DNA of 64,000 nt from a virus: the IMG/VR virus record IMGVR_UViG_3300025949_000027, positions 3,954 to 67,953 of that record, one strand, 5' to 3'. Below, piece by piece: positions 3,198 to 46,166 of this stretch. The notes beneath the pieces were generated by a model. It saw only the letters and a list, made by a program, of their open reading frames with translations. It was not told the DNA's origin and searched no databases. A program made the translations under genes and the position numbers. Each line of letters opens with the position of its first letter. The first letter of the stretch is position 1.

Positions 3198-3312
3198 TTG
3201 ACCATAAGGAAAACTTATGCTCTCATAAGTACCGAGAGCTAAGCGCAACCCGCCCAAGCGAAACCGAAGGGCACGCTCGAACAGAAGACGTTCGCGTGTC
3301 CGGAGGTTTCAC
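3198..3312 (+). promoter_or_regulatory. Late promoter plus conserved leader element, copy 1 (capsid operon)
   Basis: TTGACC(3198)-17 nt ending TGC-TCTCAT(3221), then GAGC-TAAGCG..GCCCAAGCG..GGGC..GCTCGAAC..GTTCG..GGAGGT before ATG 3313; homologous to 18035 and 26844. Confidence 0.85.
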
Positions 3313-4551
3313 ATGGCAGCTCCCGCCGCAACAATCGCCAGCCTTGGCGCTGGCCTGCGACGCAGGTATTCCGACAAGTTCGTTTCCGCGATCGAGTGGT
3401 CCGCTGGTCCCGCCGCTGCGCAGGTGCGCAAGATCGGTTGGACTGGTTTCCCGACGTGGGCAATGCGGGTGGGCAACAGCCCGGCTCGTTCCGCCACGTT
3501 CGCGACGGCCCAGTCCCTCGCCGGAACGGCGTACACCAACATCGTTCAGCCGGTAATCCCGACGTACATGCAGGACTACGGTCTTGCAACGATCGAGGGT
3601 CGGCTGATGAAGGCCGCCGCCAACAAGGAGGGCGCCCTCTACGACAAGATGGTCGCCCAGATCGACGGGATCATGAAGGGGACGATGCACTCGTTCGCCA
3701 CCAAGATCTACCGGTCTGGCTACGGCGAGTTGTCGACGATCAACGCGGCCACGACCCTGGCGTCGACATCGCTGCAGTTGGCGTTCCCCGAGGACGCGGT
3801 TCTGTTCGAGATCGGCCAGTTCGTGCAGTTCGCGGCCAGCAACACGGCGGCGATGCGCAACTCCGGCGCGACCCTGCAGGTGCTCGGCATCGACTACAGC
3901 ACCGGCATCCTGACCATGTCGGCCAACATCAACACCGTTACCGGTGTTGCCGTCGGCGACGTGATCTACTCGCAGGACGACCGCGGCACGGGCGCTTCCC
4001 CGGCGAAGATCTGCATCAGCGGCTTCGAGGCGCAGTTCAACGACAACACCGCTCTGTTCGGCGTGACCCGCTCGGGTGACGGCCGTCTGCGCGGCTACTC
4101 GTTCAGCGGCCAGGGCCGCACCGAGGAAGACGTCCTGATCGAGGGATTGGCCGAGTCGGACCGCTTCGGCGGGAACATCGACGTGGTCTACATGAACCCG
4201 ACCCGCATGCGGAACCTGGTGAAACTCGCCATGGGCCGCTACCGCCCGACGGTGACCAAGGGTCCGGCGGGGATCGGCTTCAAGGGCATCTCGCTCGTGA
4301 CGGCCACGGGCCGCGAGGTGAACGTGTTCGCGGATCGGTACTGCCCGTATCTGCGCATCTTCGGGATCGAGAGCGAGTCGCTGCAGCTGTTCTGCGCCGA
4401 CAAGCCCAACATCCCGGCGTTCCTGGACGACGACGGCAACACCGTCCTCCGTCTGGCGAGCGCGGACGGCGTCGAGGCTCGCGTGGGCTACTACGCGGAG
4501 TTGGGCTGCAACGCTCCCATCCACAACTTCTGCGCGACGTTCACCAGCTAA
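3313..4551 (+). CDS. Major capsid protein
   Basis: 412 aa, own promoter and strong SD, strongly biased codon use, capsid-like segments (VVYMNP, VFADRYCP, C-terminal YAELGCNAP), followed by decoration/adaptor genes. Confidence 0.8.
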   Translation: MAAPAATIASLGAGLRRRYSDKFVSAIEWSAGPAAAQVRKIGWTGFPTWAMRVGNSPARSATFATAQSLAGTAYTNIVQPVIPTYMQDYGLATIEGRLMKAAANKEGALYDKMVAQIDGIMKGTMHSFATKIYRSGYGELSTINAATTLASTSLQLAFPEDAVLFEIGQFVQFAASNTAAMRNSGATLQVLGIDYSTGILTMSANINTVTGVAVGDVIYSQDDRGTGASPAKICISGFEAQFNDNTALFGVTRSGDGRLRGYSFSGQGRTEEDVLIEGLAESDRFGGNIDVVYMNPTRMRNLVKLAMGRYRPTVTKGPAGIGFKGISLVTATGREVNVFADRYCPYLRIFGIESESLQLFCADKPNIPAFLDDDGNTVLRLASADGVEARVGYYAELGCNAPIHNFCATFTS

Positions 4552-4580
4552 TCGCTGGACGCTGAAAGAGGAGGCACAAC

Positions 4581-5045
4581 ATGCCCACCAACACAGGCGT
4601 TCAGACCCCGCACCCGGCCGCGGGTGTCATGGGTGTACTCGACGAGCTGACGTTCCACTGCCGCTTGGTCACCACGACGAGCGGCACGCTGGATACCACC
4701 CTGAACACCGGGACCTGGGCTCCGGCTGGAATCACGGTCACCAAGACCGCGACGAAGACCGGTCGCTACACGTTCAACATGCCGAGTTCGTTCCAGCGGC
4801 TGCTGAACGTCATCGCGACTCCGGTTGGCCCCGACGACGCCACCTACGGCGCATCGACCACTGGCGGCCCGGCGTACTTCGTTCGTGACGACGATGTCAC
4901 GGCGACGGTGTTCCGGGCTGGGTCGAACCAGGACGGCAGCTTCGAGCTGCAGTTCGTCCGCACGGACACCAATGCGGATGCCGAGTTGCCCGATGGGACG
5001 GCTGTCATGGTCACGATCATCGTGGCGCGAGGCAAGACGTTCTAA
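4581..5045 (+). CDS. Putative capsid decoration/minor head protein
   Basis: Thr-rich beta-type 154 aa directly after the capsid gene, GAGGAGG SD. Confidence 0.55.
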   Translation: MPTNTGVQTPHPAAGVMGVLDELTFHCRLVTTTSGTLDTTLNTGTWAPAGITVTKTATKTGRYTFNMPSSFQRLLNVIATPVGPDDATYGASTTGGPAYFVRDDDVTATVFRAGSNQDGSFELQFVRTDTNADAELPDGTAVMVTIIVARGKTF

Positions 5046-5368
5046 TGGGCGCCCTGCTGATCGAGATCCAGCGCCGGGCCAAGAACGGCAAGGGCGGTCA
5101 GCCTCCGATGGGTGACTACCCCGGCCCGGAGACGAAGGGTGACGAGGAGGACTCGGACCCCGACGCCATCCGGGAGGATGCTGCTCTGAACCTGGCGCGT
5201 GCCCTCGGAATCGACGAGGGAAGCGTGAACGTGCGCGAGCTCGCCGCTGCGCTCTCCGACTTCTGTCAAGCCGACGCCATGGCCGGCCGCTACGGCGGCG
5301 TGGACAAGGAAGAGGCCGACGAAGGCGGGCGCGGCGGACGCGGCGAGGAAATGTCCGAGGGCGAGTAA
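5045..5368 (+). CDS. Small acidic hypothetical protein (head module)
   Basis: TAATG coupling to the previous gene; 107 aa. Confidence 0.7.
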   Translation: MGALLIEIQRRAKNGKGGQPPMGDYPGPETKGDEEDSDPDAIREDAALNLARALGIDEGSVNVRELAAALSDFCQADAMAGRYGGVDKEEADEGGRGGRGEEMSEGE

Positions 5369-5393
5369 TCGCCTTCGGTTTAACCCGAAATCA

Positions 5394-5458
5394 CGAGCGC
5401 CGGCTGGGGCCGCGGAGGAGTTCGTATCCCGCGCCCACCGGCCGGCGCTCGGTCGTTT
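5394..5458 (+). terminator. Long intergenic hairpin (terminator or processing site after the head genes)
   Basis: CGAGCGCCGGC(5394-5404) pairs with GCCGGCGCTCG(5441-5451), with inner pairing; only a short U tract follows. Confidence 0.55.
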
Positions 5459-5475
5459 CCGGAGTTGCGTGACCG

Positions 5476-6372
5476 ATGAGCATCACCCGGGATCAGCTAC
5501 AGGCGCGCGCAGAGGCGATCGCAGACCAACTGCCTTCGACCTCGACCACGTTCGTTACGGCCGCCCAGGCCGCGGACATGGTCAACGACGGCATTCGGGC
5601 GCTGTACGACGACGCAATCGACGTCAACCCTGACTTTCGTGTCACCGAGGGGACGGTTTACAGCATCGTCTCGACGGCCGCGAACTTCATCCCGATCCCG
5701 GCCGACTTCCGGTCTGTCAGGGCGGTCGTTGCCGATCCTGGCACGCAGTACAGCGATCCGCTTCGTCGCGGACAGATGCGCTCCTTCGCCGACGGGTCGC
5801 TCCGTCGTTACTACCGCATTCAGGGAAGCCTGATTTACATCGAGCCGCGCGAGCGGGCGATCGGGAACTACCAGCTTCTCTACAACCCGTTGCCGCCAAC
5901 GCTGGCAAACGGGTCCGACACGCTCGACGTCGAACTGGAGCAGTTCCAGGACGTCATCTTCCTGCACGCCGCAGTGATGATGCTGACCAAGAACGAGTGG
6001 GACATCAGCAGCGTTGGTGCCCAACTCGCGGTCGCGAAGGCTAGGGCGGCTCGCTGGGCCCGCAACGCTCGGACCTCTGACCCGCCAATGGTCGAGGACG
6101 TCAGAAGCCCGCCGCGGTGGCGGTCGAACCTGACCGGAACCTCTTCGTCAACGCCAGCTTCAGGAGGCGACGTGGTCACGGTCGCAGCAACGATCCCGGC
6201 CCTTCAGGCGATCGACGTCTCTCAGTATTCGGGCGGCGCGATCTGCCTTGTCCTGACGACCAATCGAATCTACTACCTCGTTCCCAATACCGGGAACGCT
6301 GACGACAGCCTGACGACGGCCAACTTCGTCGACGCGCTGAACGGAGGGGGCAAGCAATGGCGCGGTCAGTGA
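5476..6372 (+). CDS. Head-tail adaptor protein with C-terminal extra domain
   Basis: N-terminal [10 protein letters not shown]...[11 protein letters not shown] helix pair, [11 protein letters not shown] and YQLLY..PPTL motifs typical of podovirus adaptors; position after capsid. Confidence 0.7.
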
Positions 6373-9350
6373 TGCGGCGCCTGGCGGCGGTCGCCTTCGT
6401 GGTGGCGTGCCTAGTCGCTTCGGCGCGACCGGCGCAGGCGACGACTATCCCGGCGGCGAACCTGTTCTCAAGCAAGACCGTCATTTGTAACGGCATCAGC
6501 TCGGGATCTGTCCAGTTATCGGCAATCGACGTGACCGGGCTCCCTAGTTACGCGACGCAGGCTTGGGTCATTACGTCGCAGGCGTGGTTCGACCTGGTCC
6601 CGAACACTGGTCTACCTCCCGATGGGGCGACGCTCATCAACGCGAACTCCACCGATAGCCGTCAGTGGAAGATCATCTCCACCGGCGGAGGTGGAGGGTC
6701 ACCGTCGGGACCGGCGGGCGGATCGCTGACCGGGACGTACCCGAATCCTGGATTTGCTGCTACCGGGGTAAGCGCCGGGGCCTACGGGGACGGTCAGCAC
6801 GTCGCCACGTACACCGTGGGCGCCGATGGTCGTCTGACGATCGCCGCAAGCTCAACCATTTCCATTCCCTCGACGGCCGTAAGCGACAGCACGTCACTGG
6901 GAAGGTCACTCATGACGGCAGCCAACGTGTCCGCGGCGCAGTCGTCGCTTTCCTTGGTTCCGGGAACCAACGTCCAGGTGTACGACAGCGACCTGGCGGC
7001 AATCGCCGCCCTGACAACGGCTGCCGACAAGTGCATCTACTTCACCGGTTCTGGCGCCGCCGCACTGTATTCCTGCACGGCCGCCGGTCGCACTTGGGCT
7101 GGCCTTGCTGACGCAACCGCAGAGGCTGGAGCACTGAGCCTAGCGTCCATCGGAGGAACCCTCCCGCTATCCAAGATGGCGACCGGCACCGCCGGCAACC
7201 TGATCACGTACGATGCAAGCGGTAACCCGGCATCGGTTGCCACTGGGACGACCGGGCAAGCTCTCCTTAGTAATGGCCCAGGTGCCGCTCCAACATTCCA
7301 GACGCTCGTCGGCGGCGGAAACGCCCTCACGACGAACCCTCTGTCGCAGTTCGCAGCAACTACATCGGCGCAGTTGGCCGGCGTCCTGACGAACGAGACA
7401 GGGTCAAACTTCGTCGTCTACTCGACTAATCCCGTCTTCGACTCCTGGAACGCCTACACAGAGATCGCGGCGCCAACGTCTCCCAGCGCCGGAACCGGGC
7501 GGGCCTGGGCCGATAGCACCGACCATCGCTGGCACGACAAGAACAGTTCAGGCGTCGTCGCTACGACCGTCGTCTCAAGCACCGCCGGTGCCAACCAGGT
7601 AGCGACGGGCGTCAGCGCTGCGGGCGTAGTTCAGTACACAACTGCGACTGCCCTGGCCTTCTCGGCGGCAATGTCCGACATGGGGACCTTCTCGTCATCG
7701 ACGCTCGCCGGCCGGATGACAGATGAGACCGGCACCGGCCTGGCGTGCTTTGCCACCAATCCAACGCTAACCGGCGCAACGATGGCCGGCGCCCTGCACC
7801 TCGGGGACAACCCGGTTGACCTGACGGTACACAGCGATGGGAACAAGACCGGTGCAAGCCCGGCTCTGGCTGACTTCTCGACCACCAGCAACCGCCACAC
7901 GTGGACCCTCACGGGCAACGTCACGGGAACGCCCACGTGGACCATCGGCTCCGCGAAGTCATTCCGCGTGTCCGTATGTCAGGACGGGACTGGCAGCCGC
8001 ACGATGGTCTGGCCATCGACACCGACCCTGACCTGGGTCGGTGGCTCTGCCCCGACGCTGACCACGACTGCCAGCGCCTGTGACCTGATCGCCTTCGACT
8101 ACGACGGAACGACGATCATTGGTCAGGCGGCTTCGGCGGGCGGCGGCGGCGGAATCACCGCTGGCACCGGTGACGTCACGTTCAGCGGTAGCGGCAGCGT
8201 CACCACGACGCTGGCTAACATCCCGAACGACGTACCGCAGGCCGGAGACATCCTGGTCACGAACACCGTCGCCCCGAGCACGCCCGCCGCCGGTAAGACG
8301 CGGGTCTACGTCGACAGCACGAACAAGGTCCTGTCGTCCAAGAACGACGCCGGAACCGTCACCCACGGCGTAGCCACGCAAACGTCCGTATCGAACCAGT
8401 GGGTAAAGACCATCGGCGCCGACGGCAGCGTCACGACCACGCAGGTGACGGTGCCTGACCTGGCATCGTTCGCGAGCTCTGCGCTACTTGCGAAGGTCAC
8501 CGACGCAACGGGAGCCTCGGGCGTGCTGGTGTTCAACGCCAACCCCGGGCTGACTGGCGCCCAGATGAGCGGGCAGCTCACGCTCAACGACAACCCGGAG
8601 ACGACCACCGAGCACGATGACGGTAACAAGACCGGCGCCGCGCCCGCGCTGGCGAACTTCAGTAACACCAGCAACACCCACAAGTGGACGTTGACCGGAA
8701 ACGTCACGGGAACGCCGACGTGGACGATGCCGAGTGCCGCGGCGATGCTCCAGGTCCGCGTCTGCCAGGACGCCACGGGCTCGCGGACGCAGACCTGGCC
8801 GACGTCGCCGACACTGACGTGGGTCAAGGGTTCGGCGCCAACCCTAAGCACGGCCGCTAGCGCCTGCGACCTGATCCGGTTCTGGTACACGGGCACGGCT
8901 CTCGTTGGGTACCCGATCGACGGGACGGCATACCTGCCGCTGGCCGGCGGAACAATGACCGGCGCCGTTGCGATGGGCGCCCAGAACATCACGAACATCA
9001 AGGATGCGTCGTGGGTCCACGCCACGGCCAGCGTTACCGGGGCCTCCCCGACCCTGGCCGACTGGACGACGGGCAACTTCATCACGATCACGCTGACCGG
9101 AAACGTCACGGGGACTCCGACGTTCACGGCGCCCACGCTCGGATCTGGCGGCGTCGCAAGGCTGACCCTTCGTATCAAGCAGGACGGAACCGGTAGCCGC
9201 ACCCTGTCCGCGTGGCCGACCGGCACCAGGTGGCAGAGCGGCACGGCGCCGACCCTGCCCACGGCCGCGAACTCCGTCTACTACGTTACCTTCTGGTACG
9301 ACGGCACGAACTACGACGGAGGCTACGGATCGTCGGGGGCGTGGCAATGA
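6372..9350 (+). CDS. Tail fibre-like protein with signal peptide and three repeated domains
   Basis: TGATG coupling gives [23 protein letters not shown]; fibre motifs [38 protein letters not shown]; Thr/Gly/Ser-rich. Confidence 0.8.
7810..9320 (+). repeat. Three internal copies of a ~95-aa fibre domain
   Basis: [11 protein letters not shown]...QD(G/A)TGSRT..WP...APTL...F(W/D)Y(D/T)GT at about 7810-8115, 8590-8900 and 9040-9320 (bounds approximate). Confidence 0.85.
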
Positions 9351-10294
9351 TCCGGAATCTCCGGAGAGTTGCCGCAGCCGTCCTGCTGGTCTGCGTCTCG
9401 GGCGGCGCTTCATTCGGGGCGACCGCTACCGTCCAGCACCGCATGACGGAGACGACAGGCACCAGCCTGGCCGACTCCGGTCCTGCGACCACGATCCCGC
9501 TCACGCTCACAGTGGGAAGCGGGGCGTTCTCGAGCATCACGGCCGGCAAGGGCTTCACCTTCGCGGCCAACGCCTGCGCGGACAGCGGCTCCCTGGCCAG
9601 TTCGAAGCTCGCCAATACGTCTACGGGGGTTGCATCGGCGACCCAATTGACCCTCGAAGTCGTTCTCGACACCACGAACGCTACGGCGTTCGACCAGATT
9701 TACGGGTTCAGCAACAGTACCTTCGACGAGTCCTGCGCCCTCTACATGGGGTCGACCGGGACGAACCAGATTTGCTTCGAGTGCCCGGCGGGGGCTGCCG
9801 TCTGTTACGACCAGACGCCTGGCTTTCACGTCCTGTACGCGATCTACGACTCGCCGAACGCGACCAGCTCCAGCCGTAACCTGCTCTACATCGACAACGT
9901 CCTTGCGACTGTCAACACCACGCCTACGGCTGCCGTCTATCCGACTCTGAACGCGGCGGCGGACGCGGGGTTCACCAACTGGGCAAACCAGCGCCTGGAC
10001 ATCGGGTGTTACGTCTCGACGGCCGTTGCTCAGGGCTTCGTCGGGCCAATCTACTACGCCGCCACGTACGCTAGGTACGTCTTCACTTCCGGCGACCGCA
10101 GCAGCCACTACACGGCACTGGTTGCCAACAACGACGCCGACCCGAACGGCGGCGCGGTCGCCAGTCCTGACCCGTTCTTCCTGGCCTACTCCATGGGACC
10201 TCTGTGCGGGGCTGGCGGGGGACGCGACGAAGCGGCGGGCGTGTGGTGGCCGTCGAGTGCGCCAGTCGACCACGCAATGTGGTGCGGCCTGTGA
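9347..10294 (+). CDS. LamG/concanavalin-like beta-sandwich protein with signal peptide
   Basis: ATGA overlap start [25 protein letters not shown]; [27 protein letters not shown] motifs of LamG-like domains. Confidence 0.65.
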
Positions 10295-12039: not shown

Positions 12040-12041
12040 CC

Positions 12042-13199
12042 ATGCCGACCATCGTACGCAGGCCGACTGGTTCCGAGGCTGGCGACCTCTACAACGAGCT
12101 CCTCAAGAATCGCCACCTCAACCCGGAGTTCGCTCCCGAGTTGAAGGCGATCACGTGCGACACGGTGGCTACCCTTCGAACCGTCAAGGGCGACCTGGCT
12201 GGCAACGCTGGCCCTCGATGCGTCGTCCTGAACGCGACCTCGACTCCTGGCGACGGCGGGGCTGGCATCTTCTACTGGCACAACACGATCGCTGGCGCCA
12301 ACGGGGCCAGCATCGACGACAACGGAACGACGTACGTCCAGGTCATCGGAACTGACGGGAACTTCGTCACCCCAGGGGCTTGGGTCAGGATGCAGTTTGC
12401 GCGGACGCCCGACCAGCAGACGTTCTCTGCAAGCGGAACCTGGACAAAGCCAACGGGCGCCGCCTGGGTGCGGGTCGAACTGATCCCGTGGGGCGCGAGC
12501 GGAGCCGGTGGCGCGGCGAACATTGGGGTAGGCGGTCGTGCCGGAGCTGGGTCAGGCGTTGGCTTCTGGGAAGGCCCCGCTTCGCTCCTGGGGGCCACCG
12601 AATCGTTGGCCTTCGGGTCCCAGCCGGCCGGTGGGGCTGGCGGCATCTTCGGCGGCGCCGGTCCCGTCAATGGCACGGACGCCCCGGATGCGACCTTCGG
12701 TCAGTGGCTTCGCGTGAAGGGCGGTACCGCTGCCGGGGTAGGCGGATACGGCAACCTAGGAACGGGGGGTGCCGGCGGGGCCGCCACGGTAGCGGGAAGC
12801 GCTGGCACCGGGCGAGCCGCAGGAGGCGGAGCCGGCGGCGGAACTGGCGGTAACCCCGCTGGCACTGCTGGCGCTGCTGGCGGGGCAGGCGGAGGACAGG
12901 ACCGCGCTACGGCGCTCGCCGGAGGTACCGCCGGGGCCGCTGGCACGGGCTCCGTAAACGCCACGTCCGGCGGCGCGGGGACATCCGCCGCAACCGGAGA
13001 AACAACGGGGGGCGCTGGGGGCGGCGGTGGCGGCGGTGGCGGAACACTTGCCGGGGCTCAGCCCGGGCAGGCCGGCGGAGACGGTGGCGGGTACGGCGGG
13101 GGCGGAGGGGGCGGAGGCGGCGGATCAACAGGCCGAAACGGAGCTGCAGGCGGCAAGGGCGGCCAGTGCTTCGGGAGGGTGACGACATGGTTCCAGTGA
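12042..13199 (+). CDS. Glycine-rich tail fibre/adhesin with tailspike-type N-terminal domain
   Basis: TVATLR..PGDGGAGIFYW..DDNG..GAWVR docking-type domain, then QTFSASGTWTKPTG and polyglycine tracts. Confidence 0.75.
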   Translation: MPTIVRRPTGSEAGDLYNELLKNRHLNPEFAPELKAITCDTVATLRTVKGDLAGNAGPRCVVLNATSTPGDGGAGIFYWHNTIAGANGASIDDNGTTYVQVIGTDGNFVTPGAWVRMQFARTPDQQTFSASGTWTKPTGAAWVRVELIPWGASGAGGAANIGVGGRAGAGSGVGFWEGPASLLGATESLAFGSQPAGGAGGIFGGAGPVNGTDAPDATFGQWLRVKGGTAAGVGGYGNLGTGGAGGAATVAGSAGTGRAAGGGAGGGTGGNPAGTAGAAGGAGGGQDRATALAGGTAGAAGTGSVNATSGGAGTSAATGETTGGAGGGGGGGGGTLAGAQPGQAGGDGGGYGGGGGGGGGGSTGRNGAAGGKGGQCFGRVTTWFQ

Positions 13200-13283
13200 T
13201 GCGCAATAAGGGAGCATGGCTCCTGTGCCAGGCCGCACGTCCAATGAACCTCGTAACGCGCGAATAAGAGATACAATTGACGC

Positions 13284-16942: not shown

Positions 16943-17030
16943 GCAACGCGTCATGACGGTCGATGTCGGCCGGTTGGGCGACCGCTGAATCTGCTTGCGC
17001 CGCGATCGCTCGCAGGTGCACCATTGCTGT

Positions 17031-17501: not shown

Positions 17502-17510
17502 TCGACGCGA

Positions 17511-17951
17511 TCAGCGCTGGCGAACGAAGGTGTCTTTGAACCCGCGAGCCGTGCGGGTCCACATGGTATCGCCGTTTAGCACGTAGACGAGAGAAGCGGT
17601 TTCTGGCTTGCTGTCGAACCGCAGGACGATGTCGTGTCCGGTGGCTGCCGAGTACCTACCTGATCCGGCGATCTTCTCCGTAGGCCGCGAGTGCCTAGCG
17701 TCAACCTGTGCGATGAAGACCGAGAACGTACCGTCGGCCCGCAGGGTAAGGAAGTCGCGTCCCGAGGGGTCGGCCTCTGACGGATCCTCGAGCCAGCGAC
17801 CGACCAGCGGGTCATCATCCACGGTCGCCGATGGCGCCACGGGCGCCAACACAGAGCCGGAGGCGTGGACGTCCCCCTGATTGCTCACCGTCGTCAGCGC
17901 CGCCCCGAACAAGATCATGACCCCCGCCACCCAAGCCGTCGTCTTCAGCAT
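17511..17951 (-). CDS. Exported/membrane-anchored protein, lipocalin-like beta-barrel
   Basis: Hydrophobic N-terminus; DPLVGRW..LTLRADGTF motif; lone reverse-strand gene; start uncertain (17951 or 17969). Confidence 0.6.
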   Translation of the reverse strand: MLKTTAWVAGVMILFGAALTTVSNQGDVHASGSVLAPVAPSATVDDDPLVGRWLEDPSEADPSGRDFLTLRADGTFSVFIAQVDARHSRPTEKIAGSGRYSAATGHDIVLRFDSKPETASLVYVLNGDTMWTRTARGFKDTFVRQR

Positions 17952-18034
17952 GCGTACATGGTGCGACAAGGCGACCCGGATGCCAATCCTGAACGTTCGC
18001 CCAGCGATGTAGCGCCCGCAACAAGGCTTACGGA

Positions 18035-18137
18035 TTGACTTTCAGCGGGTTCCGTGCTCTCATTTTCGTGAGCCAAGCGGAATCGGCCCAAGCGTTGTCC
18101 TGGCCACAGCTCGAACGTTCGTTCGTGCGAGGTCAGC
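18035..18137 (+). promoter_or_regulatory. Late promoter plus conserved leader element, copy 2 (ejection-protein operon)
   Basis: TTGACT(18035)-17 nt ending TGC-TCTCAT(18058); GTGAGCCAAGCG..GGCCCAAGCG..GGCC..GCTCGAAC..GTTCGTGCGAGGT before TTG 18138. Confidence 0.85.
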
Positions 18138-20030
18138 TTGGGCGGATTCTTCGATCCTGAAGCGCGTCAGAAGGCGATTGACGCCGCGACCCAGGCAGCT
18201 AGCTCGGGTGGCGATGCTCAGAAGGCATTCACCGACGCCCTCGGCGGGTCCAGTGGCAGCGTTTCGAATGTCGTTGAGTCGATCCCGGTTGTCGGTCCGG
18301 TAATCCAGAAGACCTTCGATCCGAAGGCGCCGACCGACCTGACGAAGACCGACGCCTACAAGGCGACGCAGGATTTCAATACGCAGTTGGCCCAGCAGCA
18401 GGCGGCGAATGGGCCGTCGGCAACGCCGACCGTGGGCAAAGACCCGGCGGCGAAGACCGCGCTGACGCAGTCCCAGCAGCAGCAGCAGGGCGCACAGGCC
18501 GCCTACGACAAGGCGGTAGCGGACGCACAGGCTGCAGCTCAGTCAGCGAACGGAGGCGGGATCGGCGGGTCTATCGCGTCGTCGGTTTCTGTCATGACCA
18601 ATCCGACGGTCAAGGCTGCGAAGGCCGCCTTAGACGCCGCGACCCAGGCGGCCCAGCAAGCCCAGCAGGCTTACGACGGAAGTACAAACCCGGCGCTGAA
18701 TGTCACGGCCCCGACGGTTGCCAACGCGCCTCTCATCCAGGCCGGGACGGTATCAGCCGGGCAGGTGACGGCCCCGGTCATCACGGGACCGGGTGCGATC
18801 TCAGCCCCGGTCATCGCCGCGCCCACGCCGATCTCAGCCATCTACAACACGGCCCCGACGGCTACCGCTGGGAGCATGACCGCGCCAGGCGACATCGCCG
18901 CCCAGAACATCGACCGGATCAAGCTCGATACCACGAACTCGGATGCCAGCCGCCAGCAATTCTTGCAGGCACTGGCATTGTCACAGGGAGCGGCCGAAGG
19001 GAACGCCCCGAGCGCTGCCGAGGCGTTGCTACAGAGGGGCATCGACGAGAACGTCGGCACTGCCTACGGACTGGCGGCGTCTCTTCAGGGACGTAACCCG
19101 GGGCTCGCCCTGCGCACTGGCGCGATCTCGGCGTCTGACGCCATCGCGAAGTCGGCCGCCGACATGGCGGCGCTTCGGGCAACTGAGATGGCGACTGCTC
19201 GCCAGCAGTACGGCAGCATGGCCGGCCAGCTCAATCAGAACGACATCACGCAGGCGGGCCAGCAGCTCAGCGCCGATGTCAGCGTCGCGGAAGCGAACGC
19301 TTCGAACATGCTGGATGCGGCGAAGTCGAACCAGTCGACGAAGCTTCAGACGTCGATCGCTAACCTGAACGCGCAGACGCAGACGGCGCTGGCGAACCTT
19401 CAGGCGGCCGTGTCGACGAACAACGCGAACCAGGCAGCGGACATGCAAGCCAAGGTCGCGAACCTTACGGCCACGACGCAAGTAGCGACGCAGAACGCGC
19501 TAGACGCCACGAACACGAACATCGCGAACCTGAACGCACAACTCGACGTCCTGAAGAAGAACGCCGATCTCGCGATGAAGGCCGGAGAGGACAACCAGGC
19601 CGCCGACCTGCAGTCGCAGATCGCGAACCTGAACGCATCGCTCAAGGCCGCGGAAGACAACCAGGTGATGCTCCACAACACCCTGGTCGACAACGCGAAC
19701 CTTAAGGCCCAGGCGGACCAGTTCAACGCAGGTACATCCCTCAAGGTCGACCAGCTGAATCAGAGCGCAGATCTACAGCAGCAGGTCATCAACGACGCCC
19801 GCCGCCAGGGGTTCACCGACGACCAGATCAAGCTTCTGCTTGCACAACTCGGCGTGACGACGACGAACGCCCAGACGCAGGCGAACTTCGACTCTAGTCA
19901 GCAGGCGTTCTACGGGAAGCTGATCGCGTCGCTAGGAACGGCGGCTGCTGGCGGAGCTGGTGGAGGTGCCGTGGCCGGTGGCGCCGTGCCAACACAGATC
20001 GGCGCTAACGGATCTCCGATCTTGGAATGA
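18138..20030 (+). CDS. Internal virion/DNA ejection protein with hendecad coiled coil
   Basis: Ala/Gln/Asn-rich; GNAPSAAEALL motif; Asn every 11 residues; Gly/Ala hydrophobic C-terminus; TTG start after GAGGT. Confidence 0.7.
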   Translation: MGGFFDPEARQKAIDAATQAASSGGDAQKAFTDALGGSSGSVSNVVESIPVVGPVIQKTFDPKAPTDLTKTDAYKATQDFNTQLAQQQAANGPSATPTVGKDPAAKTALTQSQQQQQGAQAAYDKAVADAQAAAQSANGGGIGGSIASSVSVMTNPTVKAAKAALDAATQAAQQAQQAYDGSTNPALNVTAPTVANAPLIQAGTVSAGQVTAPVITGPGAISAPVIAAPTPISAIYNTAPTATAGSMTAPGDIAAQNIDRIKLDTTNSDASRQQFLQALALSQGAAEGNAPSAAEALLQRGIDENVGTAYGLAASLQGRNPGLALRTGAISASDAIAKSAADMAALRATEMATARQQYGSMAGQLNQNDITQAGQQLSADVSVAEANASNMLDAAKSNQSTKLQTSIANLNAQTQTALANLQAAVSTNNANQAADMQAKVANLTATTQVATQNALDATNTNIANLNAQLDVLKKNADLAMKAGEDNQAADLQSQIANLNASLKAAEDNQVMLHNTLVDNANLKAQADQFNAGTSLKVDQLNQSADLQQQVINDARRQGFTDDQIKLLLAQLGVTTTNAQTQANFDSSQQAFYGKLIASLGTAAAGGAGGGAVAGGAVPTQIGANGSPILE

Positions 20031-20037
20031 GGATCTG

Positions 20038-21858: not shown

Positions 21859-23741
21859 TGGCCGATCCGATCAGCCCTGAACTGCTGGCGGCCTATCGTG
21901 AGGCGCTGTCCGAGACGAGCCGCGCTCCTATCGCTGCGCCTGACGTGCCAACGTCCGTTCCTGCTGCGCCCGCCGCTGCAGCAGCGGCCCCCGGTGGCGA
22001 CATGGTGTCCAAGTTCCTGGCCGGTGCCTCGCCGCAGACCCACGCCGCGATCCAGGACTTCCACGACGGTCCGAATGGAAACGACCCTGACCAGCGGGTA
22101 CGCGACCTGCTGGCGAAGCAGTACCCGCCTGGCATGTCGGCGAAGGACATCACGGCGAAGCTGGCGGCCGACAAGGCGGCGGTGGGTAAGAGCGTCGGGC
22201 CTGGCGAGACATTCCTGTCCCAGTTCGCCAACAGCGCCGGCCTTGGTTTCGGAGACGAGGCGGGGGCGGCTACGCAGCGAGCCTACGACATGGTGACTGG
22301 AACGCCGTCGTCATACACGGCGATCCGAGACAACATGCGCGCGCGGAGAGAGGCCGGATCGGCACAGCACCGCGGGGCTTCGATCGCTGGCGACCTGGCG
22401 GGCGGGGCGCTACTGGGGGCCATGATCCCCGTGCCGTCGACCCTCGGCCGAGCCACGGCCCTCGGGGCCGGATTCGGGGCTGCATCTGGAGCAGGCAACA
22501 GCGACGCGGACATCGACTCGACGCAGTTCGCTGGTGATGTCGTCAAGGGCGCCGGAATCGGCGGCATGGCCGGGGCCGCCGGCTACAAGCTGACGAAGTA
22601 CATCAACGATGCCCCGGAGCGCCAGACTGACGCGACCATGCGGAAGATCGTTGGCCGAGGAGGGGAGGGCGCCCAGAAGGAGGCCGATGCCGTCCAGGAC
22701 TCGGTCCTCTATGCGCTGAAGGAGCACCCCGAGGTCAAGTCGACCGTGGGCCAGCCCAAGGAAACGATCCGCACCGCCGAGACGGCGATCGCCGGTCGCA
22801 GCGCTGGAAATACCAGCATTTACGACGGGGCGACGGAAGTATCTGCCAAGGCTGCGGAGAAGTCTGCCCAGGCGGAAGCGGCCCGCCTTCAGTCCCTCGC
22901 CGAAGAGGCCGAGCACGAGGCCGAGAAGAAGGCCGGAACCATCCCGGCGATTCAGAAGGCCATCGAACGGCACAGCAAGAACGCCGACAAGTACGTCAAC
23001 CCCGATCTCAACGCCAGGGCGGCTATGAACGCGTCCAAGCGAGAGATTGAACTGGCGGAGACTCAGGCCGCCATCGATGCCGCCAAGGAACAGGCGGCCT
23101 CCCTGCGCGCCCAGGCGCAGGCGGCGATTGAGAACGGTGCTGCCGGCGGTGGCGTGGCCACCGATGCCATCAAGGACGCCATCTCCAAGAGCGGCGTCCC
23201 GGGTCGCGATCATGGCCCAGCGATCGCCAAGTTCGGCAAGGCTCTGGACGAGCTGGCCGGTGGACGTTCGCGGATACCGGCGCGCGAGGTGCGCGACTGG
23301 ATCACCGACTACCTCGGGCCGAACACGATGCCATCCGCCGAGACCACGACCGAGCAGGCCAAGCAAGGCGCCAGGATCGCCGCCCGCGACGTCCTGACAA
23401 AGCACGTCGCGGACACGCTGGGGGAAGACGCGGCCAAGCAGGTCGCCGACAACAACCGTGCCATCACGGGTCTGTCGACGATCCGCGACATCGCCGAGAC
23501 GAACGCGCGCAAGGGACGCTACCGCCCGGAAGACCTACAGGGCCAGGGGTTCAAGGCGTCTACCATCGGCAAGGTAAAGCACGCGATCGGTGACGCAGCT
23601 ACGGCCGTCGCTGGAAGCGCCCCGATCCAGGCCGCGGGCGGGAGTGCGATCGGAAACGGTGTCGCTGGCGCCGTGGCTCAGCCCGCAATCGACCTGGCCA
23701 CTCTTCGGGCGAAGGCGAAGCAGACCATCTTCGGTGACTGA
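21858..23741 (+). CDS. Putative internal virion/ejection protein
   Basis: AGLGFGDE motif and Gly/Ala membrane-like helices typical of podovirus ejectosome proteins; TAATG coupling. Confidence 0.65.
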   Translation: MADPISPELLAAYREALSETSRAPIAAPDVPTSVPAAPAAAAAAPGGDMVSKFLAGASPQTHAAIQDFHDGPNGNDPDQRVRDLLAKQYPPGMSAKDITAKLAADKAAVGKSVGPGETFLSQFANSAGLGFGDEAGAATQRAYDMVTGTPSSYTAIRDNMRARREAGSAQHRGASIAGDLAGGALLGAMIPVPSTLGRATALGAGFGAASGAGNSDADIDSTQFAGDVVKGAGIGGMAGAAGYKLTKYINDAPERQTDATMRKIVGRGGEGAQKEADAVQDSVLYALKEHPEVKSTVGQPKETIRTAETAIAGRSAGNTSIYDGATEVSAKAAEKSAQAEAARLQSLAEEAEHEAEKKAGTIPAIQKAIERHSKNADKYVNPDLNARAAMNASKREIELAETQAAIDAAKEQAASLRAQAQAAIENGAAGGGVATDAIKDAISKSGVPGRDHGPAIAKFGKALDELAGGRSRIPAREVRDWITDYLGPNTMPSAETTTEQAKQGARIAARDVLTKHVADTLGEDAAKQVADNNRAITGLSTIRDIAETNARKGRYRPEDLQGQGFKASTIGKVKHAIGDAATAVAGSAPIQAAGGSAIGNGVAGAVAQPAIDLATLRAKAKQTIFGD

Positions 23742-24328
23742 TGGAAAGGTCATGGCTCAAGATGCCCCCGCGTAAGCCGCCGGACGACCCCGAGACGATC
23801 GATCTCGTGTCGTTCAACGCCAGGGCGAACCTGCTGGAGCAGAAGACCGGAAAGGTGCCTGCGTTCGTTACCTACGTCCGCCAGAACGGTCCCAAGCTCA
23901 CCTTCGACGAGTGGGGCCAGGCTCTCCCCCTGTCCCCCATGGAGCAGTCAGACCTGGACAGGTTGGTTGCCGTGCTGATGGACCCGGTGACCAGGTTCCG
24001 GGACTTGCTGACGTGCGGGCGCCTAAACGACGACGAGGTACAGGCTGTCTCCGCAGTCTATCCGGAGGTGTACGCCGCTGTCGTGAATGCGGCCGTCAAG
24101 GACATGATCGTGGCCCAGCCGCCGTTCGCGCTCTGGGCACAGTCGGTACTTGGAATCCTGTTCCAGAAGCCCGCGACGGAGATGTACGCGAGCACCATCA
24201 ACGCCACCGACGAGATCGGACGGCCAAAGGAGAACCGCGCCAGCCCTGGCCTGGCGTCTCCCCCCGACGCCATCCCAACGCCACAGGACCGCCGAGACAC
24301 CGCAATTCGCCAGCAGGCGAGGAAATAG
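23741..24328 (+). CDS. Hypothetical protein (resembles the C-terminal part of large internal virion proteins)
   Basis: TGATG coupling; V.DP..L..G.L..DEVQAV.AVYPEVY motif. Confidence 0.65.
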   Translation: MERSWLKMPPRKPPDDPETIDLVSFNARANLLEQKTGKVPAFVTYVRQNGPKLTFDEWGQALPLSPMEQSDLDRLVAVLMDPVTRFRDLLTCGRLNDDEVQAVSAVYPEVYAAVVNAAVKDMIVAQPPFALWAQSVLGILFQKPATEMYASTINATDEIGRPKENRASPGLASPPDAIPTPQDRRDTAIRQQARK

Positions 24329-24337
24329 GACAGACCC

Positions 24338-24748
24338 ATGGCATTCCAGCAATCGATCCAATGGAAGAACGCCCTCAACGCCACGCTCGCATCTGGCAAC
24401 ACCGTTGCCCAGGTGATCATCCCATTCCAAGGCCGACACTCGTTCAGCGCCGTGGAGTCCTACAACCAGGATGCCACGCACACGCTTGTTGCGACGCTCG
24501 CGCTCGAGATCTCAAACGACTATGACCGGCGCAACCCGACGCAGGCTACGTGGGATCCGGTAACTGACGCCGCCATCGTGGCGTGGTTGACCACAGACGC
24601 TACGGCGACACCAAAGGGCGGGAAGCCGAATGGATCCGCTGGCACGGGATCCATGGTGATTGATCCGCTGCGCGCTGCGGCTCTGCGCTGGACCGCGACA
24701 TGGGTGTCTGGAACCGGAAGCTACAAGCTCGACGTCGACATGGAGTAA
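24338..24748 (+). CDS. Small beta-sandwich structural protein
   Basis: LALEISND..TWDPV..ALRWTATW pattern; 136 aa. Confidence 0.6.
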   Translation: MAFQQSIQWKNALNATLASGNTVAQVIIPFQGRHSFSAVESYNQDATHTLVATLALEISNDYDRRNPTQATWDPVTDAAIVAWLTTDATATPKGGKPNGSAGTGSMVIDPLRAAALRWTATWVSGTGSYKLDVDME

Positions 24749-24754
24749 CGGAAT

Positions 24755-25759
24755 ATGGCATCTCTGATCAAAGGACTCGGCGCGACCGCCAACGTCAGTT
24801 CGGCATCTGGGACCCTTCCCGTCGCTAACGGAGGTACCGGGAGAACATCCGGGGCCGGGGCCGACGTCCAGACCTTCACTGCCAATGGCACGTGGATAAG
24901 GCCTACCGGAAACTACGGATCTTGTCGCGTCATCGTCACCGGATGCGGTGGCCCTGGCGGCGGCGGTCCCATCGTGGCGACGTCGACCGCGGCGAGCGGA
25001 GGAGGAGGAGGAGGAGGAGGCGGTCAGTCCGATGTGACGTTCCCGTTTTCGCTCATGCCATCGACGGCTGCCGTGGTTGTGCCAACGGCTCCCGCGGGCG
25101 GGGCCGGGGCAACGGTGAGCGGCCCGGGGGCTACCGGCGCTGGAGCAGCTGCGGTGACGTTCGACAACCCGGCGTCGCTGACCTACGTGCAGGCGTACTC
25201 GGGCGGTGCCGGATTCGGCGGCCTGGCGAGCAGCGGGGCCGGCGGCGGTGGCGGAGCCGGGATCGGTGGCAATGGCGGCAACTCATCGGGCGGCGCTGGA
25301 ACCGCAGGATCGTTCGGCGGCGGCGCGGGTGGTGCTGGCGGAGCTGGAGCGAACGCTTCAATCTACGGCGGGGGCGCTGGCGGAGGTGGAACTGGCGGAG
25401 CAGGCGGTGCGGGCAACGCCGGAGGCGTCGGGAACTTCGGGTGTGGCGGCGGCGGCAGCGGTGGTGGCATCACGTCTGCTAACGCGGTAGGAAGCGGCGC
25501 CGCAGGCGGCATGGCGGCGGGCTCACGTGGTACCGCTTCGGCCGGATCGGCCAACAGCGCGACCGCCCTCGGTGATGGAACGATGTCAGGCGGGGGTGGC
25601 GGAGGCGGCGGCGGAAAGACGACTACGTCCGGCGGTGACGGCGCGAATGGCCAGTTTCCAGGAGGCGGCGCGGGCGGCGGGGGCGCTACTCAGACCGGAA
25701 CGCGCGGCGGTAACGGAGGCACGGGCGGCGGCGGTCAGGTGACAGTCATCTGTGATTGA
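24755..25759 (+). CDS. Glycine-rich tail fibre/adhesin
   Basis: SGTLPVANGGTG fibre motif, QTFTANGTWIRPTG, polyglycine tracts; paralogous to 12042-13199. Confidence 0.75.
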   Translation: MASLIKGLGATANVSSASGTLPVANGGTGRTSGAGADVQTFTANGTWIRPTGNYGSCRVIVTGCGGPGGGGPIVATSTAASGGGGGGGGGQSDVTFPFSLMPSTAAVVVPTAPAGGAGATVSGPGATGAGAAAVTFDNPASLTYVQAYSGGAGFGGLASSGAGGGGGAGIGGNGGNSSGGAGTAGSFGGGAGGAGGAGANASIYGGGAGGGGTGGAGGAGNAGGVGNFGCGGGGSGGGITSANAVGSGAAGGMAAGSRGTASAGSANSATALGDGTMSGGGGGGGGGKTTTSGGDGANGQFPGGGAGGGGATQTGTRGGNGGTGGGGQVTVICD

Positions 25760-26614
25760 CTGGCGATAACTGCTTCACCCCAAACACCAAAACTAGGCGT
25801 CTTCGCCGGTAACTCCACGTCTGCTGTCCAGCAGTTCGAGACGTGGCTGGGAAGGAACGTTGACGGTATCCTTGGGTTCACTGGCCAGACCGACTGGGCT
25901 GATTTCGAAGGGTCGATCCCGTTCGCGATCAACATCTGGAAGGGCCTGGACCGACCGGTGTTCTGGACGATACCTCTGATCGTCACGGGTGCCACGCTAG
26001 ACGACGCAGCGGCCGGCCTCTTCGATGGCCACTACCTCGTAGCGGCTACGGCGTTGGCCGCGTTTCGTCCGCAGGACGCGCAAATCTACATCCGCACCGG
26101 CTGGGAACTCAACGGCAACTGGTTCCCATGGGCTGCACAAGGACACGAGGCCGCGTACATCGCAGCCTTCCGCCGGTTCGTGTCGGTCTTCCGATCGGTG
26201 TCAAACCGCTTCGTATTCGAGTGGAACGTCAACTGTGGTGGATCCTGGGACCCCTCGACCGCATACCCGGGGGACGACGTCGTCGACATCATCGGCATGG
26301 ACGTCTACTGGCAGACGGCTTTCGACGGTACTGACCCGATCGTAGCTTGGAAGAACAAGGTCACCGGTAGCTGGGGGCTCGGCTGGCATCAGACCTTCGC
26401 CGCGCAACGAGGCAAGCCTACGGCCTACCCCGAGTGGGGGATCCAATCCGATCTAGCCGCGCCGTACATCGACCTAGCCCGGCAATGGTTCGCGGCCCAC
26501 CACGTGAAGTACCAGACCTACTGGAATTCGGCTTCTAGCTTCAACGGTACGCTGTCCAATGAGCAGTACCCGACGGCGGGAACCATGTACAAGAGCCTGT
26601 TCCGTATGCGGTGA
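25760..26614 (+). CDS. Glycoside hydrolase family 26 domain (no canonical start at the domain N-terminus)
   Basis: IRTGWELNGNWFPW (acid/base Glu), YPGDDVVDIIGMDVY, KPTAYPEWG (nucleophile); frame open from 25760. Confidence 0.85.
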   Translation: MAITASPQTPKLGVFAGNSTSAVQQFETWLGRNVDGILGFTGQTDWADFEGSIPFAINIWKGLDRPVFWTIPLIVTGATLDDAAAGLFDGHYLVAATALAAFRPQDAQIYIRTGWELNGNWFPWAAQGHEAAYIAAFRRFVSVFRSVSNRFVFEWNVNCGGSWDPSTAYPGDDVVDIIGMDVYWQTAFDGTDPIVAWKNKVTGSWGLGWHQTFAAQRGKPTAYPEWGIQSDLAAPYIDLARQWFAAHHVKYQTYWNSASSFNGTLSNEQYPTAGTMYKSLFRMR

Positions 26615-26627
26615 CCGGACCGGTCGC

Positions 26628-26756
26628 CTATTGCATGGCGCCGGGACCTGACGGTCCCCTGCGTTCTAGGTAGTCGGCCATTTCGGATAGGTCATCTTCC
26701 GAGAAGTTCTCGTCGTTCCCCGCGATGGGATGCTGTGTGTCGGTGTCGGTCTGCAT
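26628..26756 (-). CDS. 42-aa acidic peptide (not in ORF track)
   Basis: GGGAGAG SD then MQTDTDTQHPIAGNDENFSEDDLSEMADYLERRGPSGPGAMQ*. Confidence 0.5.
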   Translation of the reverse strand: MQTDTDTQHPIAGNDENFSEDDLSEMADYLERRGPSGPGAMQ

Positions 26757-26843
26757 GGTTGCTCTCCCCTCGGGCGACATGCCCAGTACCATAGTCAGGG
26801 CGGATTAAAGAGCGTTTCCGCCTGGTTTGCGGCCGGTAAGTCG

Positions 26844-26946
26844 TTGACACTATTTCCGGAACATGCTCAAATTCAGGTGAGCCAAGCGGTCCAGGCCCAA
26901 GCGTTCAACATGGCCAAGCTCGAACGTCTGTTCGTGCGAGGTCGTC
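26844..26946 (+). promoter_or_regulatory. Late promoter plus conserved leader element, copy 3 (lysis operon)
   Basis: TTGACA(26844)-17 nt ending TGC-TCAAAT(26867); GTGAGCCAAGCG..GGCCCAAGCG..GGCCAAGCTCGAAC..GTTCGTGCGAGGT before ATG 26947. Confidence 0.85.
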
Positions 26947-30932: not shown

Positions 30933-30942
30933 AGGAGACAAC

Positions 30943-46119: not shown

Positions 46120-46166
46120 CAGCGCCTGATCGCCGGGCTCTCCCCGAGCGGCGATGACGATTTTGC

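Follow-up and report, generated by a model that had tools for sequence, protein, structure and literature searches.

Three times within the window (the whole 64,000-nt stretch of viral DNA analysed here), a promoter-like sequence is followed by a structured leader and then by a start codon, raising the question of what this repeated module controls, and whether it does so as DNA or as RNA. The sequence-only reading had picked out the three copies, and direct reading of the sequence bore out every position and motif that it reported. The parts of the copies are as follows:

3198..3315, + strand: module copy 1 (capsid gene), with promoter-like boxes and a leader of about 80 nt to the ATG at 3313 (nhmmer E 2.3e-16)
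3198..3226, + strand: putative promoter of copy 1, with a -35-like TTGACC (3198-3203), a 17-nt spacer, TGC (3218-3220) and the second hexamer TCTCAT (3221-3226)
3234..3249, + strand: 5' motif GAGAGC and box 1 (AAGCGCAAC, 3241-3249) of copy 1, from family comparison
3256..3265, + strand: box 2 of copy 1 (AAGCGAAACC), with the 5' arm GAAACC (3260-3265) pairing with GGUUUC (3305-3310)
3269..3301, + strand: inner hairpin of copy 1, GGGCACGC-UC-GAAC / loop / GUUC-GCGUGUCC
3302..3315, + strand: 3' lock arm of copy 1, made up of the SD GGAGG, the spacer GUUUCAC and the capsid-gene ATG (opening cost 17.0 kcal/mol)
18035..18143, + strand: module copy 2, with TTGACT (18035-18040), a 17-nt spacer ending in TGC, TCTCAT (18058-18063) and GAGCCAAGCG (18070-18079)
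18086-18093 with 18136-18143: outer pairing of copy 2 (GCCCAAGC with GCUUGGGC), covering the start codon TTG at 18138
18101-18105 with 18131-18135: further pairing of copy 2 (UGGCC with GGUCA), taking in part of the SD
18112-18125: inner hairpin of copy 2, CGAAC/GUUCG
26844..26951, + strand: module copy 3, with TTGACA (26844-26849), a 17-nt spacer ending in TGC, TCAAAT (26867-26872), GAGCCAAGCG (26879-26888) and GCCCAAGCG (26895-26903)
26907-26912 with 26946-26951: outer pairing of copy 3 (AACAUG with CAUGUU), covering the start codon ATG at 26947
26912-26915 with 26940-26943: further pairing of copy 3 (GGCC with GGUC)
26921-26934: inner hairpin of copy 3, CGAAC/GUUCG

In each copy, GCTCGAAC-loop-GTTCG is followed by the SD and then by the start codon (ATG 3313, TTG 18138, ATG 26947), and AAGCG begins twice (at 3241/3256, 18075/18090 and 26884/26899 in copies 1, 2 and 3). 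A chance origin of the three copies is excluded. GAGCYAAGCG-N7-CCCAAGCG has three exact matches in the window and one further match with three mismatches, which lies in a coding region, against an expectation of 0.27 with up to three mismatches; TTGAC-N15-TGCTCNNAT likewise has three exact matches. Between copies 2 and 3 the conserved blocks are 100% identical and the intervening stretches differ at most positions, a pattern that favours selection over recent copying.

The three copies first counted are all exact, but the total is four: a diverged module (G000:389-541, locus L045; nhmmer E 2.9e-13) sits outside the window, 3.4 kb upstream, ahead of a 652-aa gene. A fifth putative promoter of the same type stands without the leader boxes:

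58876..58905, + strand: TTGACG, 18-nt spacer, TCTCAT

Downstream of it come a long, almost fully paired hairpin (approximately 58933-59022; -64.3 kcal/mol, z -3.39) and then an SD.

The identity of the genes behind the modules is clearest for copy 1, where the label "capsid" is upheld through homologues carrying PF17236 (SU10 family). For the "ejection" and "lysis" operons, family searches with the first genes gave no match; copy 3 is followed, 3.9 kb further downstream, by a CHAP-domain gene. The idea of a dedicated module heading virion and (putative) lysis gene blocks is supported. In one metatranscriptome library we found contigs identical to the capsid gene of the window, a weak sign that may reflect DNA carry-over and that is uninformative about the leader.

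The upstream part of the module (TTGAC, 17-nt spacer, TC..AT) is, judged by sequence, a convincing promoter motif. TTGAC(C/T/A) and the 17-nt spacer agree in all three copies with the -35 element and spacing of sigma-70 promoters, and TG occupies the extended -10 position. The sigma-70 -10 hexamer, on the other hand, requires A at -11 and T at -7, and the hexamers here (TCTCAT, TCTCAT and TCAAAT) carry C at -11, as had been pointed out for all three, and T at -7. In relatives without this sigma gene, the orthologous promoter reads CACCAT, with A at -11. The sigma-28 (FliA/WhiG) consensus, TAAA-N15-GCCGATAA, is not matched: the -35 box is TTGAC rather than TAAA, and the agreement is confined to the GC of GCTC(TC/AA)AT. 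Two proteins encoded in the window are candidate readers, the first of the promoters as a whole and the second of the TTGAC box:

31427..32152, + strand: phage sigma factor of FliA/WhiG type, with regions 2, 3 and 4
30237..30932, + strand: Cys-rich protein with an RpoD-like region 4.2 helix-turn-helix at its C-terminus

Transcription would probably begin 6-8 nt past the TC..AT hexamer, which places the start in or close to GAGC; in copy 1, GAGAGC is the probable transcript start region by virtue of this distance from the second hexamer.

What such a transcript would do is suggested by its predicted fold. For 83 crude gene calls we scored how much energy is needed to open positions -13 to +6, using fixed 75-nt windows for ranking. 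The four leader-bearing genes rank 1, 5, 6 and 11 of the 83. In genome order, from the module outside the window to copy 3, the opening costs of the four leaders are 21.5, 17.0, 25.0 and 14.5 kcal/mol, against a genome median of 9.05 and a 95th percentile of 16.2; copy 2, at 25.0 kcal/mol, has the highest cost of all. By start-site accessibility, copies 1 and 3 fall only within the lowest quarter and are not extreme. The strongest pairing in the leader joins box 2 and its flank to the SD/start region, outranking the pairing named by the sequence-only reading. That reading had also held two folds to be possible through GAGC and GCUC, and here the outcome is divided. With the start region constrained to stay open, GAGC:GCUC or GCCC:GGGC pairings show up in the predicted folds, and the complementarity of the 5' motif and its partner is conserved across the family (0 of 500 shuffles as good); covariation between the two segments was not seen, as 4155 of 20000 permutations scored equally well. 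Similarly, the inner stem said to covary (GGCC/GGCC versus GCCC/GGGC) does form a 4-bp G+C helix, but with a register shift of one base, which makes it weak evidence.

Stronger evidence comes from related phages, in which the leader stands ahead of the capsid gene only. A strict leader signature is present at 24 of 26 related loci with an MCP identity of at least 38%, and at none of 20 loci at or below 33%. By this comparison the capsid copy is a member of a lineage-wide family of capsid-operon leaders, with the same architecture in orthologous and more distant members; the element is accordingly not unique to this phage, which carries an expanded member of an older family. Common to the family are two boxes (consensus approximately RCG(A/C)AAC, 12-22 nt apart), a 5' GAGC/GCGC motif and a central hairpin. 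The AAGCG boxes are an old direct repeat of these leaders, and the 5' arm begins at the second. The genes that this phage has in common with leader-bearing relatives are structural genes, CHAP and integrase genes, and a handful with no assigned function.

In every family member, a 5' arm of CGAAAC type pairs with the SD/GUUUCG/start region, and both sides change together. For 14 leaders, the summed duplex energy with their own partners was -332.7, compared with -246.0 +/- 13.6 on permutation (0 of 20000 permutations as good), meaning that the 5' segment of each leader is a better match to the start region of its own gene than to the start regions of other leaders. A pair table anchored on CGAAAC, built from single-sequence minimum-energy folds of only about 12 distinct leader sequences, shows A-U (4), U-A (3) and C-G (7) at helix position 9, U-A (6), G-C (3) and C-G (1) at position 12, and all of G-U, A-U, U-A and G-C at position 2. 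Pairing of the central hairpin is likewise kept with differing sequence (GGGUUG/CAACCC, GGUUGGA/UCCAACC, GGUGG/CCACC, CGAAC/GUUCG). MAFFT alignment followed by RNAalifold gave five weak pairs from one alignment and none from three others. Taken together, the occlusion scores, the permutations and the pair types reveal a conserved, co-varying helix over the SD and start codon, as in SD-sequestering leaders, with arms that co-vary across both paralogues and orthologues. Translational control at the RNA level, one of the roles originally suggested, is thus well supported, and action of the leader as RNA on translation is the most likely reading. A search of Rfam 15 at the gathering threshold returned no match on the window or on the loci of nine relatives, in line with the expectation that this is no described element; with E up to 5, the four loci holding the four modules gave only a weak, unrelated CcsR1 match elsewhere.

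Our preferred interpretation, to which we assign a probability of roughly 0.6, is a late promoter coupled to a cis-acting 5'-UTR that controls translation, with a closed start site and a trans-acting factor reading the boxes. The leader would form a long irregular hairpin whose 5' arm starts at box 2 or just after it, and whose 3' arm consists of the SD and spacer, extending over the start codon in most copies, so that the start site would be closed by default. The arms would be fitted gene by gene, with the boxes, the GAGC/GCGC motif and the central hairpin in common. A shared trans-acting factor, which we infer, would read the single-stranded boxes beside the 5' arm and open the lock, in the way that Com acts on the mom mRNA of Mu; that it closes the lock instead is the less likely option. 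One signal could then tie the output of virion and lysis proteins together. Copy 3 keeps its boxes although they lie outside its own lock, which indicates a role for them beyond pairing; at the same time, the 12-22 nt range of box spacing and an altered box 2 in the closest orthologues (the L006 group) argue that sequence-specific reading of both boxes is not universal. It is also paradoxical that the gene for the most abundant virion protein should be preceded by a lock of 15-25 kcal/mol, and co-transcriptional folding or ribosome standby could explain a locked capsid start without any factor. We consider it quite improbable that the full system is an undescribed phage-wide translational regulon, in which the leader family serves as operator and, in this phage, has been carried as a cassette into all virion and lysis operons, an RNA-binding factor unlocks a pseudoknot-like lock through the two RCG(A/C)AAC boxes, and the whole is coupled to a split sigma (the FliA-type sigma on TC..AT, the free-standing region-4.2 protein on TTGAC).

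The same paradox would be resolved if the hairpins were instead promoter-proximal RNase III sites for processing or stability, where cleavage trims transcripts to a single 5' end and frees the SD with no phage factor involved. RNase III processing sites of the T7 R-site type comprise a stacked duplex of about two helical turns that contains an internal loop. The predicted leader geometry (approximately 18-25 stacked pairs per leader, interrupted by internal loops) is roughly compatible with this, and the long hairpin directly preceding the SD behind the 58876 promoter is a plausible substrate. However, the helices are short and irregular, and cleavage leaves the conserved single-stranded boxes unexplained, including the unpaired ones in copy 3; we therefore regard this alternative as unlikely, though the best of those considered.

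Very unlikely, in our judgement, is that the boxes act as DNA, the direct repeats and the inverted copy near the SD being repressor or activator operators (a roadblock, or resembling the stoperator sites of mycobacteriophage L5) and the RNA helix a by-product. Four modules do conserve direct repeats near +5 and +20 relative to the promoter, all three copies in the window have a GCTC..GAGC inverted repeat extending across the second hexamer and the start region, and the phage encodes extra DNA-binding proteins. Nevertheless, the inverted arms lie at distances from each other that differ by tens of bases, box spacing ranges over 12-22 nt, and the 3' arm is in every case the SD/start region. The arms differ between copies in one genome and match their own gene, so that no one DNA-binding protein could recognise all of them; the G-U pairs in the helix fit RNA rather than a DNA palindrome; and the 7-mer CCAAGCG on its own is not enriched in the window (13 observed vs 13.4 expected).

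Least probable of all is a transcription-level device acting on RNA polymerase, either a put/nut-type processive antitermination RNA or an attenuator: the position directly after promoters heading long operons, the two-domain shape (5' box region plus hairpins) and a TGCTCT in the promoter region, which we take to resemble boxA, would suit it, but the leader hairpins of copies 1 and 2 are not followed by a U-run (copy 3 offers no more than a UUUU within the start of its coding sequence), none of the + strand sites listed by terminator scans falls at the three leader hairpins, the operons contain terminator-like sites at chance level (10 vs 11.4 expected; 15 vs 11.3), Rfam gave no match, and it is with the SD/start region itself that pairing is conserved. 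The antitermination role once proposed gains no support from these results, and the G+C-rich hairpin plus U-run of an intrinsic-terminator attenuator was not found.

The preferred reading, a translational lock behind a late promoter, has partial counterparts in known systems. In T7, pairs of a promoter and an RNase III site precede gene blocks, transcription is by a single-subunit polymerase, and the sites generally leave the SD unburied; the present leaders are likewise recurrent, mutually similar hairpin elements, placed after a phage promoter and ahead of the leading gene in several operons, but are predicted to bury the SD. Further counterparts are SD-sequestering translational operators and riboswitch platforms such as the T4 gene 32 leader pseudoknot, rpsO and the alpha-operon pseudoknots, with which the leaders share an SD/start region in a conserved, co-varying helix and a possible crossing second pairing (pseudoknot topology); they differ in having no sequence or Rfam relationship to these and no covariation in the second pairing. 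In Mu mom, a hairpin closes the start site of a late mRNA, and the Com site lies just 5' of, and overlaps, the closing arm. Here too the start site is predicted to be closed by a hairpin, with a candidate box next to the closing arm, whereas the two repeated boxes, the four target operons and the family-wide leader set the present system apart from com-mom translational activation (PMC6483171). At the transcriptional level, the portion of PMC8948821 used here describes phiEco32-like phages whose own sigmas (phiEco32 gp36; phage 7-11 gp47) read late promoters, the 7-11 promoter being bipartite with a 16-nt spacer and starts 6-9 bp downstream. The phage studied here resembles them in its SU10-family capsid type (via homologues), its own sigma gene and a few non-canonical promoters before late blocks, but differs in promoter sequence (GTAAtg-16-aCTA and tAATGTAtA there, TTGAC-17-TC..AT here), in sigma type (ECF-like there, FliA/WhiG here) and in its shared structured leader, none being described for their late promoters in that portion of the source.

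SD-sequestering leaders are a known kind of element; the leader family itself is new, and is probably an undescribed switch for late-protein production. Accounts of late-gene control in phages usually concern transcription. In the present case, an uncultured soil phage lineage keeps a co-varying RNA lock on the start site of its capsid operon, and in this phage promoter and lock have been copied to all the late operons with the arms re-fitted to each gene, providing a natural series of matched variants for studying how such a lock is opened. The promoter set, together with the FliA-type sigma and the stand-alone region-4.2 protein, offers a tractable case of a phage redirecting host RNA polymerase; and if the trans-acting factor exists, it would represent a new post-transcriptional master switch of virion production.

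Direct reading of the sequence bears out exactly, in motifs and in layout, the three stretches that the sequence-only reading had picked out as copies of one promoter and leader, and the observation can be extended both by a fourth copy and by a leader family in related phages. In the three window copies, TTGAC(C/T/A) is followed by a 17-nt spacer ending in TGC and then by TCTCAT or TCAAAT; GAGC(C/T)AAGCG stands 6-9 nt after this hexamer, with 7 nt and CCCAAGCG next and then GCTCGAAC, a loop, GTTCG, a Shine-Dalgarno (SD) sequence and the start codon. The fourth, diverged copy lies in the 3.9 kb of the phage record (67,953 bases, 65% G+C) that precede the window, which comprises bases 3954-67953.

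Copies of the module in this phage
Window 3198-3315: copy 1, before the capsid gene (ATG at 3313)
Window 18035-18143: copy 2, before a gene starting with TTG at 18138
Window 26844-26951: copy 3, before a gene starting with ATG at 26947
Record 389-541 (G000, the whole record; L045 is the same locus): fourth copy, with GAGCGAAAC, GGCCCAAGCGGAAC, GCTCGCAC, a central hairpin of its own, an SD and TTG as start codon; the distance from its promoter (TTGACC/17-nt spacer/TCTGTT) to GAGC exceeds that in copies 1-3 by about 25 nt

An nhmmer search recovers the fourth copy at E 2.9e-13, with no additional match anywhere in the record; the 652-aa gene that follows it has a weak head-tail-adaptor PHROG match. 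The pattern of the two AAGCG direct repeats (boxes 1 and 2) has three exact matches in the window, against 0.27 expected even with three mismatches allowed, and the promoter pattern likewise has three exact matches. Copies 2 and 3 agree completely in the named blocks and differ at most positions of the promoter spacer and of the inter-box stretches, the pattern that selection on the blocks, not recent duplication, would be expected to leave. Near-identical DNA is present in rhizosphere and soil metagenome runs; the DNA contigs over copies 1 and 2 from sequencing runs are identical to the window and so add no variation. Pattern searches returned only one match to the exact two-box pattern in IMG/VR (chance-like, inside a coding region), 36 matches to GCCCAAGCG..GCTCGAAC, none with the hairpin and SD context, and 5 viral plus 72 genome matches to GACGAAAC..GGTTTCGTCATG, none belonging to the leader family. 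In many Pseudomonas genomes (L126, L128, L134-L140 and about 30 further loci), an inverted repeat of 60 nt, GACGAAAC...GGTTTCGTC, is conserved and terminates at an ATG; it looks like an unrelated start-site-masking hairpin.

Relatives were gathered with a capsid-protein profile, which picked up 33 loci from viruses and 27 from metagenomes. In those at 65-67% identity, including the complete 52-kb genomes G001 and G002, the capsid gene alone is preceded by a homologous promoter and leader, and the G001 orthologue of the copy-2 gene sits within a longer reading frame, without the leader; the module has therefore multiplied in this phage. Relatives down to 38% identity keep the same layout upstream of the first gene of the capsid operon: a 5' motif of the UAGCGC/GAGCGC type, a direct repeat of about RCG(A/C)AAC whose units stand 12-22 nt apart, a GCGC(UC) motif, a central hairpin that varies in sequence, and finally SD-GUUUCG-AUG. 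Of the 26 loci with capsid identity of at least 38%, 24 have the strict signature CGAAAC..G(G/T)T(T/C)TC..ATG, as against none of the 20 loci at 33% or below, a count that leaves aside L034 (no upstream sequence) and L046-L054, L059, L060, L066 and L067 (either duplicating viral loci or lacking upstream sequence) and that represents only about 12 distinct leader sequences, because many of the counted loci are near-duplicates. The two misses are L063, with one mismatch, and L065, which has diverged. The boxes of copy 1 read AAGCGCAAC and AAGCGAAAC and are the family's old direct repeat. A small hydrophobic ORF lies between leader and capsid gene at L013-L020, L022, L058 and L063; the leader directly adjoins the capsid gene in this phage, as it does in the L006 and L021 groups. 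The genes common to this phage and its leader-bearing relatives are structural genes, CHAP and integrase, plus a few without a known function.

In the predicted folds of every family member, the second repeat and its flank (the 5' arm) form base pairs with the SD and the spacer, and often with the start codon as well, a pairing that we call the lock, and four lines of evidence favour the leader acting as RNA. When partners are permuted, the best fit of each 5' segment is its own start region: duplex energies with own partners sum to -332.7, against -246.0 +/- 13.6 for permuted partners, and none of 20,000 permutations was as good. A CGAAAC-anchored table of pairs, made with our own script from single-sequence folds, has an invariant GAAAC:GUUUC core with flanking positions that change on both sides (position 9: A-U 4, U-A 3, C-G 7; position 12: U-A 6, G-C 3, C-G 1), G-U pairs among them. 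Consensus folding of MAFFT alignments gave five weak pairs on one alignment and none on three others, because the arms are mis-registered in these alignments. Within this one genome the arms differ from copy to copy, each matching its own gene: GAAACC/GGUUUC in copy 1, GCCCAAGC/GCUUGGGC (covering the TTG start) in copy 2, AACAUG/CAUGUU in copy 3, and GGCCC/GGGCC plus GGAACC/GGUUCC in the fourth copy. Opening the start region costs 14.5-25.0 kcal/mol in the four leaders, compared with a genome median of 9.05; when 83 crude gene calls are scored in fixed 75-nt windows, the four genes take ranks 1, 5, 6 and 11. That the arms instead form a DNA palindrome read by a protein is argued against by the variable distance between them, by the G-U pairs in the helix and by the constant overlap of one arm with the SD. 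The element also stands outside the known RNA families, in keeping with the first impression that it was not a described one: Rfam 15 at gathering thresholds has no match in the window or on nine relatives' loci, and at E up to 5 nothing relevant around the four modules.

The sequence-only reading had also proposed two alternative folds, based on a GAGC:GCUC pairing. This pairing generalises, in most members, as complementarity between the 5' motif and a mid motif just 3' of the 5' arm, but without demonstrated covariation: none of 500 shuffles was as good, whereas 4155 of 20,000 permutations with other members' partners were. Should this pairing form at the same time as the lock, the two would cross and make a pseudoknot. 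The inner stem earlier described as covarying (GGCC/GGCC versus GCCC/GGGC) amounts to a 4-bp helix shifted in register and counts for little. In three of the four copies the 5' arm starts with box 2; copy 3 keeps both boxes fully conserved although its predicted fold leaves them unpaired, which suggests a reader shared by all modules. No candidate for this box reader was found.

On the promoter side, the two boxes are invariant and keep a fixed spacing over unrelated spacers, which marks them as a promoter, and two nearby genes encode candidate readers.

Features bearing on promoter recognition, with neighbouring genes
30237-30932: Cys-rich protein, two genes before the sigma gene; C-terminus almost a copy of RpoD region 4.2, region 2 undetected
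30802-31422: CHAP-domain gene, which lies downstream of copy 3 together with a DUF6527 gene
31427-32152: sigma factor with regions 2, 3 and 4; top-scoring models FliA/WhiG (179.5 bits, cut-off 201)
58876: fifth promoter of the same type, without leader (TTGACG, 18-nt spacer, TCTCAT)

The TTGAC box is the sequence read by region 4.2 of the RpoD type; such a region is carried by the protein encoded near the sigma (30237-30932), and region 4.2 of the FliA-type sigma itself is FliA-like. Given the 17-nt spacer, position -11 is C in all three window copies, whereas the orthologous promoter of G001 and G002 reads CACCAT, with A at -11. No sigma homologue was found in G001, G002 and the relatives, where the weak matches to region 4 proved to belong to a LuxR-type protein and to proteins of the HNH type. 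This contrast at -11, alongside a sigma present versus absent, is a single comparison that fits the phage sigma as a candidate promoter reader here. The module promoters do not match the known sigma-28 consensus, and scans with consensus sigma-70 gave matches at chance level. In phiEco32 and 7-11 it is established that phage sigmas have late promoters of their own (PMC8948821). In the three window copies, the second hexamer and the presumed start point lie within an inverted repeat, GCTC(TC)...GAGC (3219-3239, 18056-18073 and 26865-26882), which L006-group orthologues lack. By eye, 46156-46184 resembles a canonical early promoter (TTGCGA, 17-nt spacer, TAGATT) before a + strand operon starting at 46283, its TAGATT contrasting with the TC..AT hexamers of the late modules.

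As for the genes themselves, that at 3313-4551 has no Pfam match of its own, and several of its 48 homologues, at 39-48% identity, match PF17236 (SU10 major capsid protein family), while the homologues P0001-P0005 share 70-97% identity with it; the first genes behind copies 2 and 3 have no family match. The integrase gene at 57764-58879 suggests that this phage is temperate. Other Pfam matches in the window are a ParE toxin (33121-33396), an acyltransferase 3 (35177-36274) and a glycosyl hydrolase 26 (25958-26614). Neither a blastn search with 4.9 kb against the phage collection nor the capsid-protein profile against genome contigs found a match. One metatranscriptome library holds contigs identical to capsid-gene positions 3734-4144 and 4383-4737, possibly through DNA carry-over; they span parts of the capsid gene only, not the leader or start point. 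At 12505-13171, contig depth is 15.8 to 214.9 in all four runs, against about 0-8 elsewhere, with many loose ends at about 13006-13123; the cause is probably a repeat that is of low complexity or shared widely.

The best-supported account is a late promoter joined to a leader whose fold blocks the start site until the lock is opened. As the preferred opening mechanism, a putative factor would bind the single-stranded boxes beside the 5' arm and so open the lock, on the principle of Mu com-mom (PMC6483171). The main rival holds that the leader hairpins are RNase III processing sites. In its favour are the precedent of T7 and the long, nearly fully paired hairpin behind the 58876 promoter (-64.3 kcal/mol, z -3.39), which is followed by an SD and a short ORF from ATG 59044. 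The RNA from that promoter contains CGCUUGG, the box complement, and was considered as a trans-acting antisense RNA; this was rejected, as its duplexes with the four leaders are no stronger than those obtained with random genome windows, 36 to 53 of 60 of which were as good. Purely kinetic opening, or ribosome standby, is possible. Transcription-level control by the leader fits poorly, as no U-run follows the leader hairpins (direct reading of copies 1 and 2) and terminators are not in excess over chance.

The interpretation first offered, a late-gene control module with an antitermination or translational switch, is supported in part. Literature searches on structured leaders at phage-sigma late promoters and on analogues yielded no description of such an element, an absence that is not proof. 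The element forms a new family within a known kind, that of a phage late promoter joined to an SD-sequestering translational leader, and this phage has expanded the module to all its late operons.
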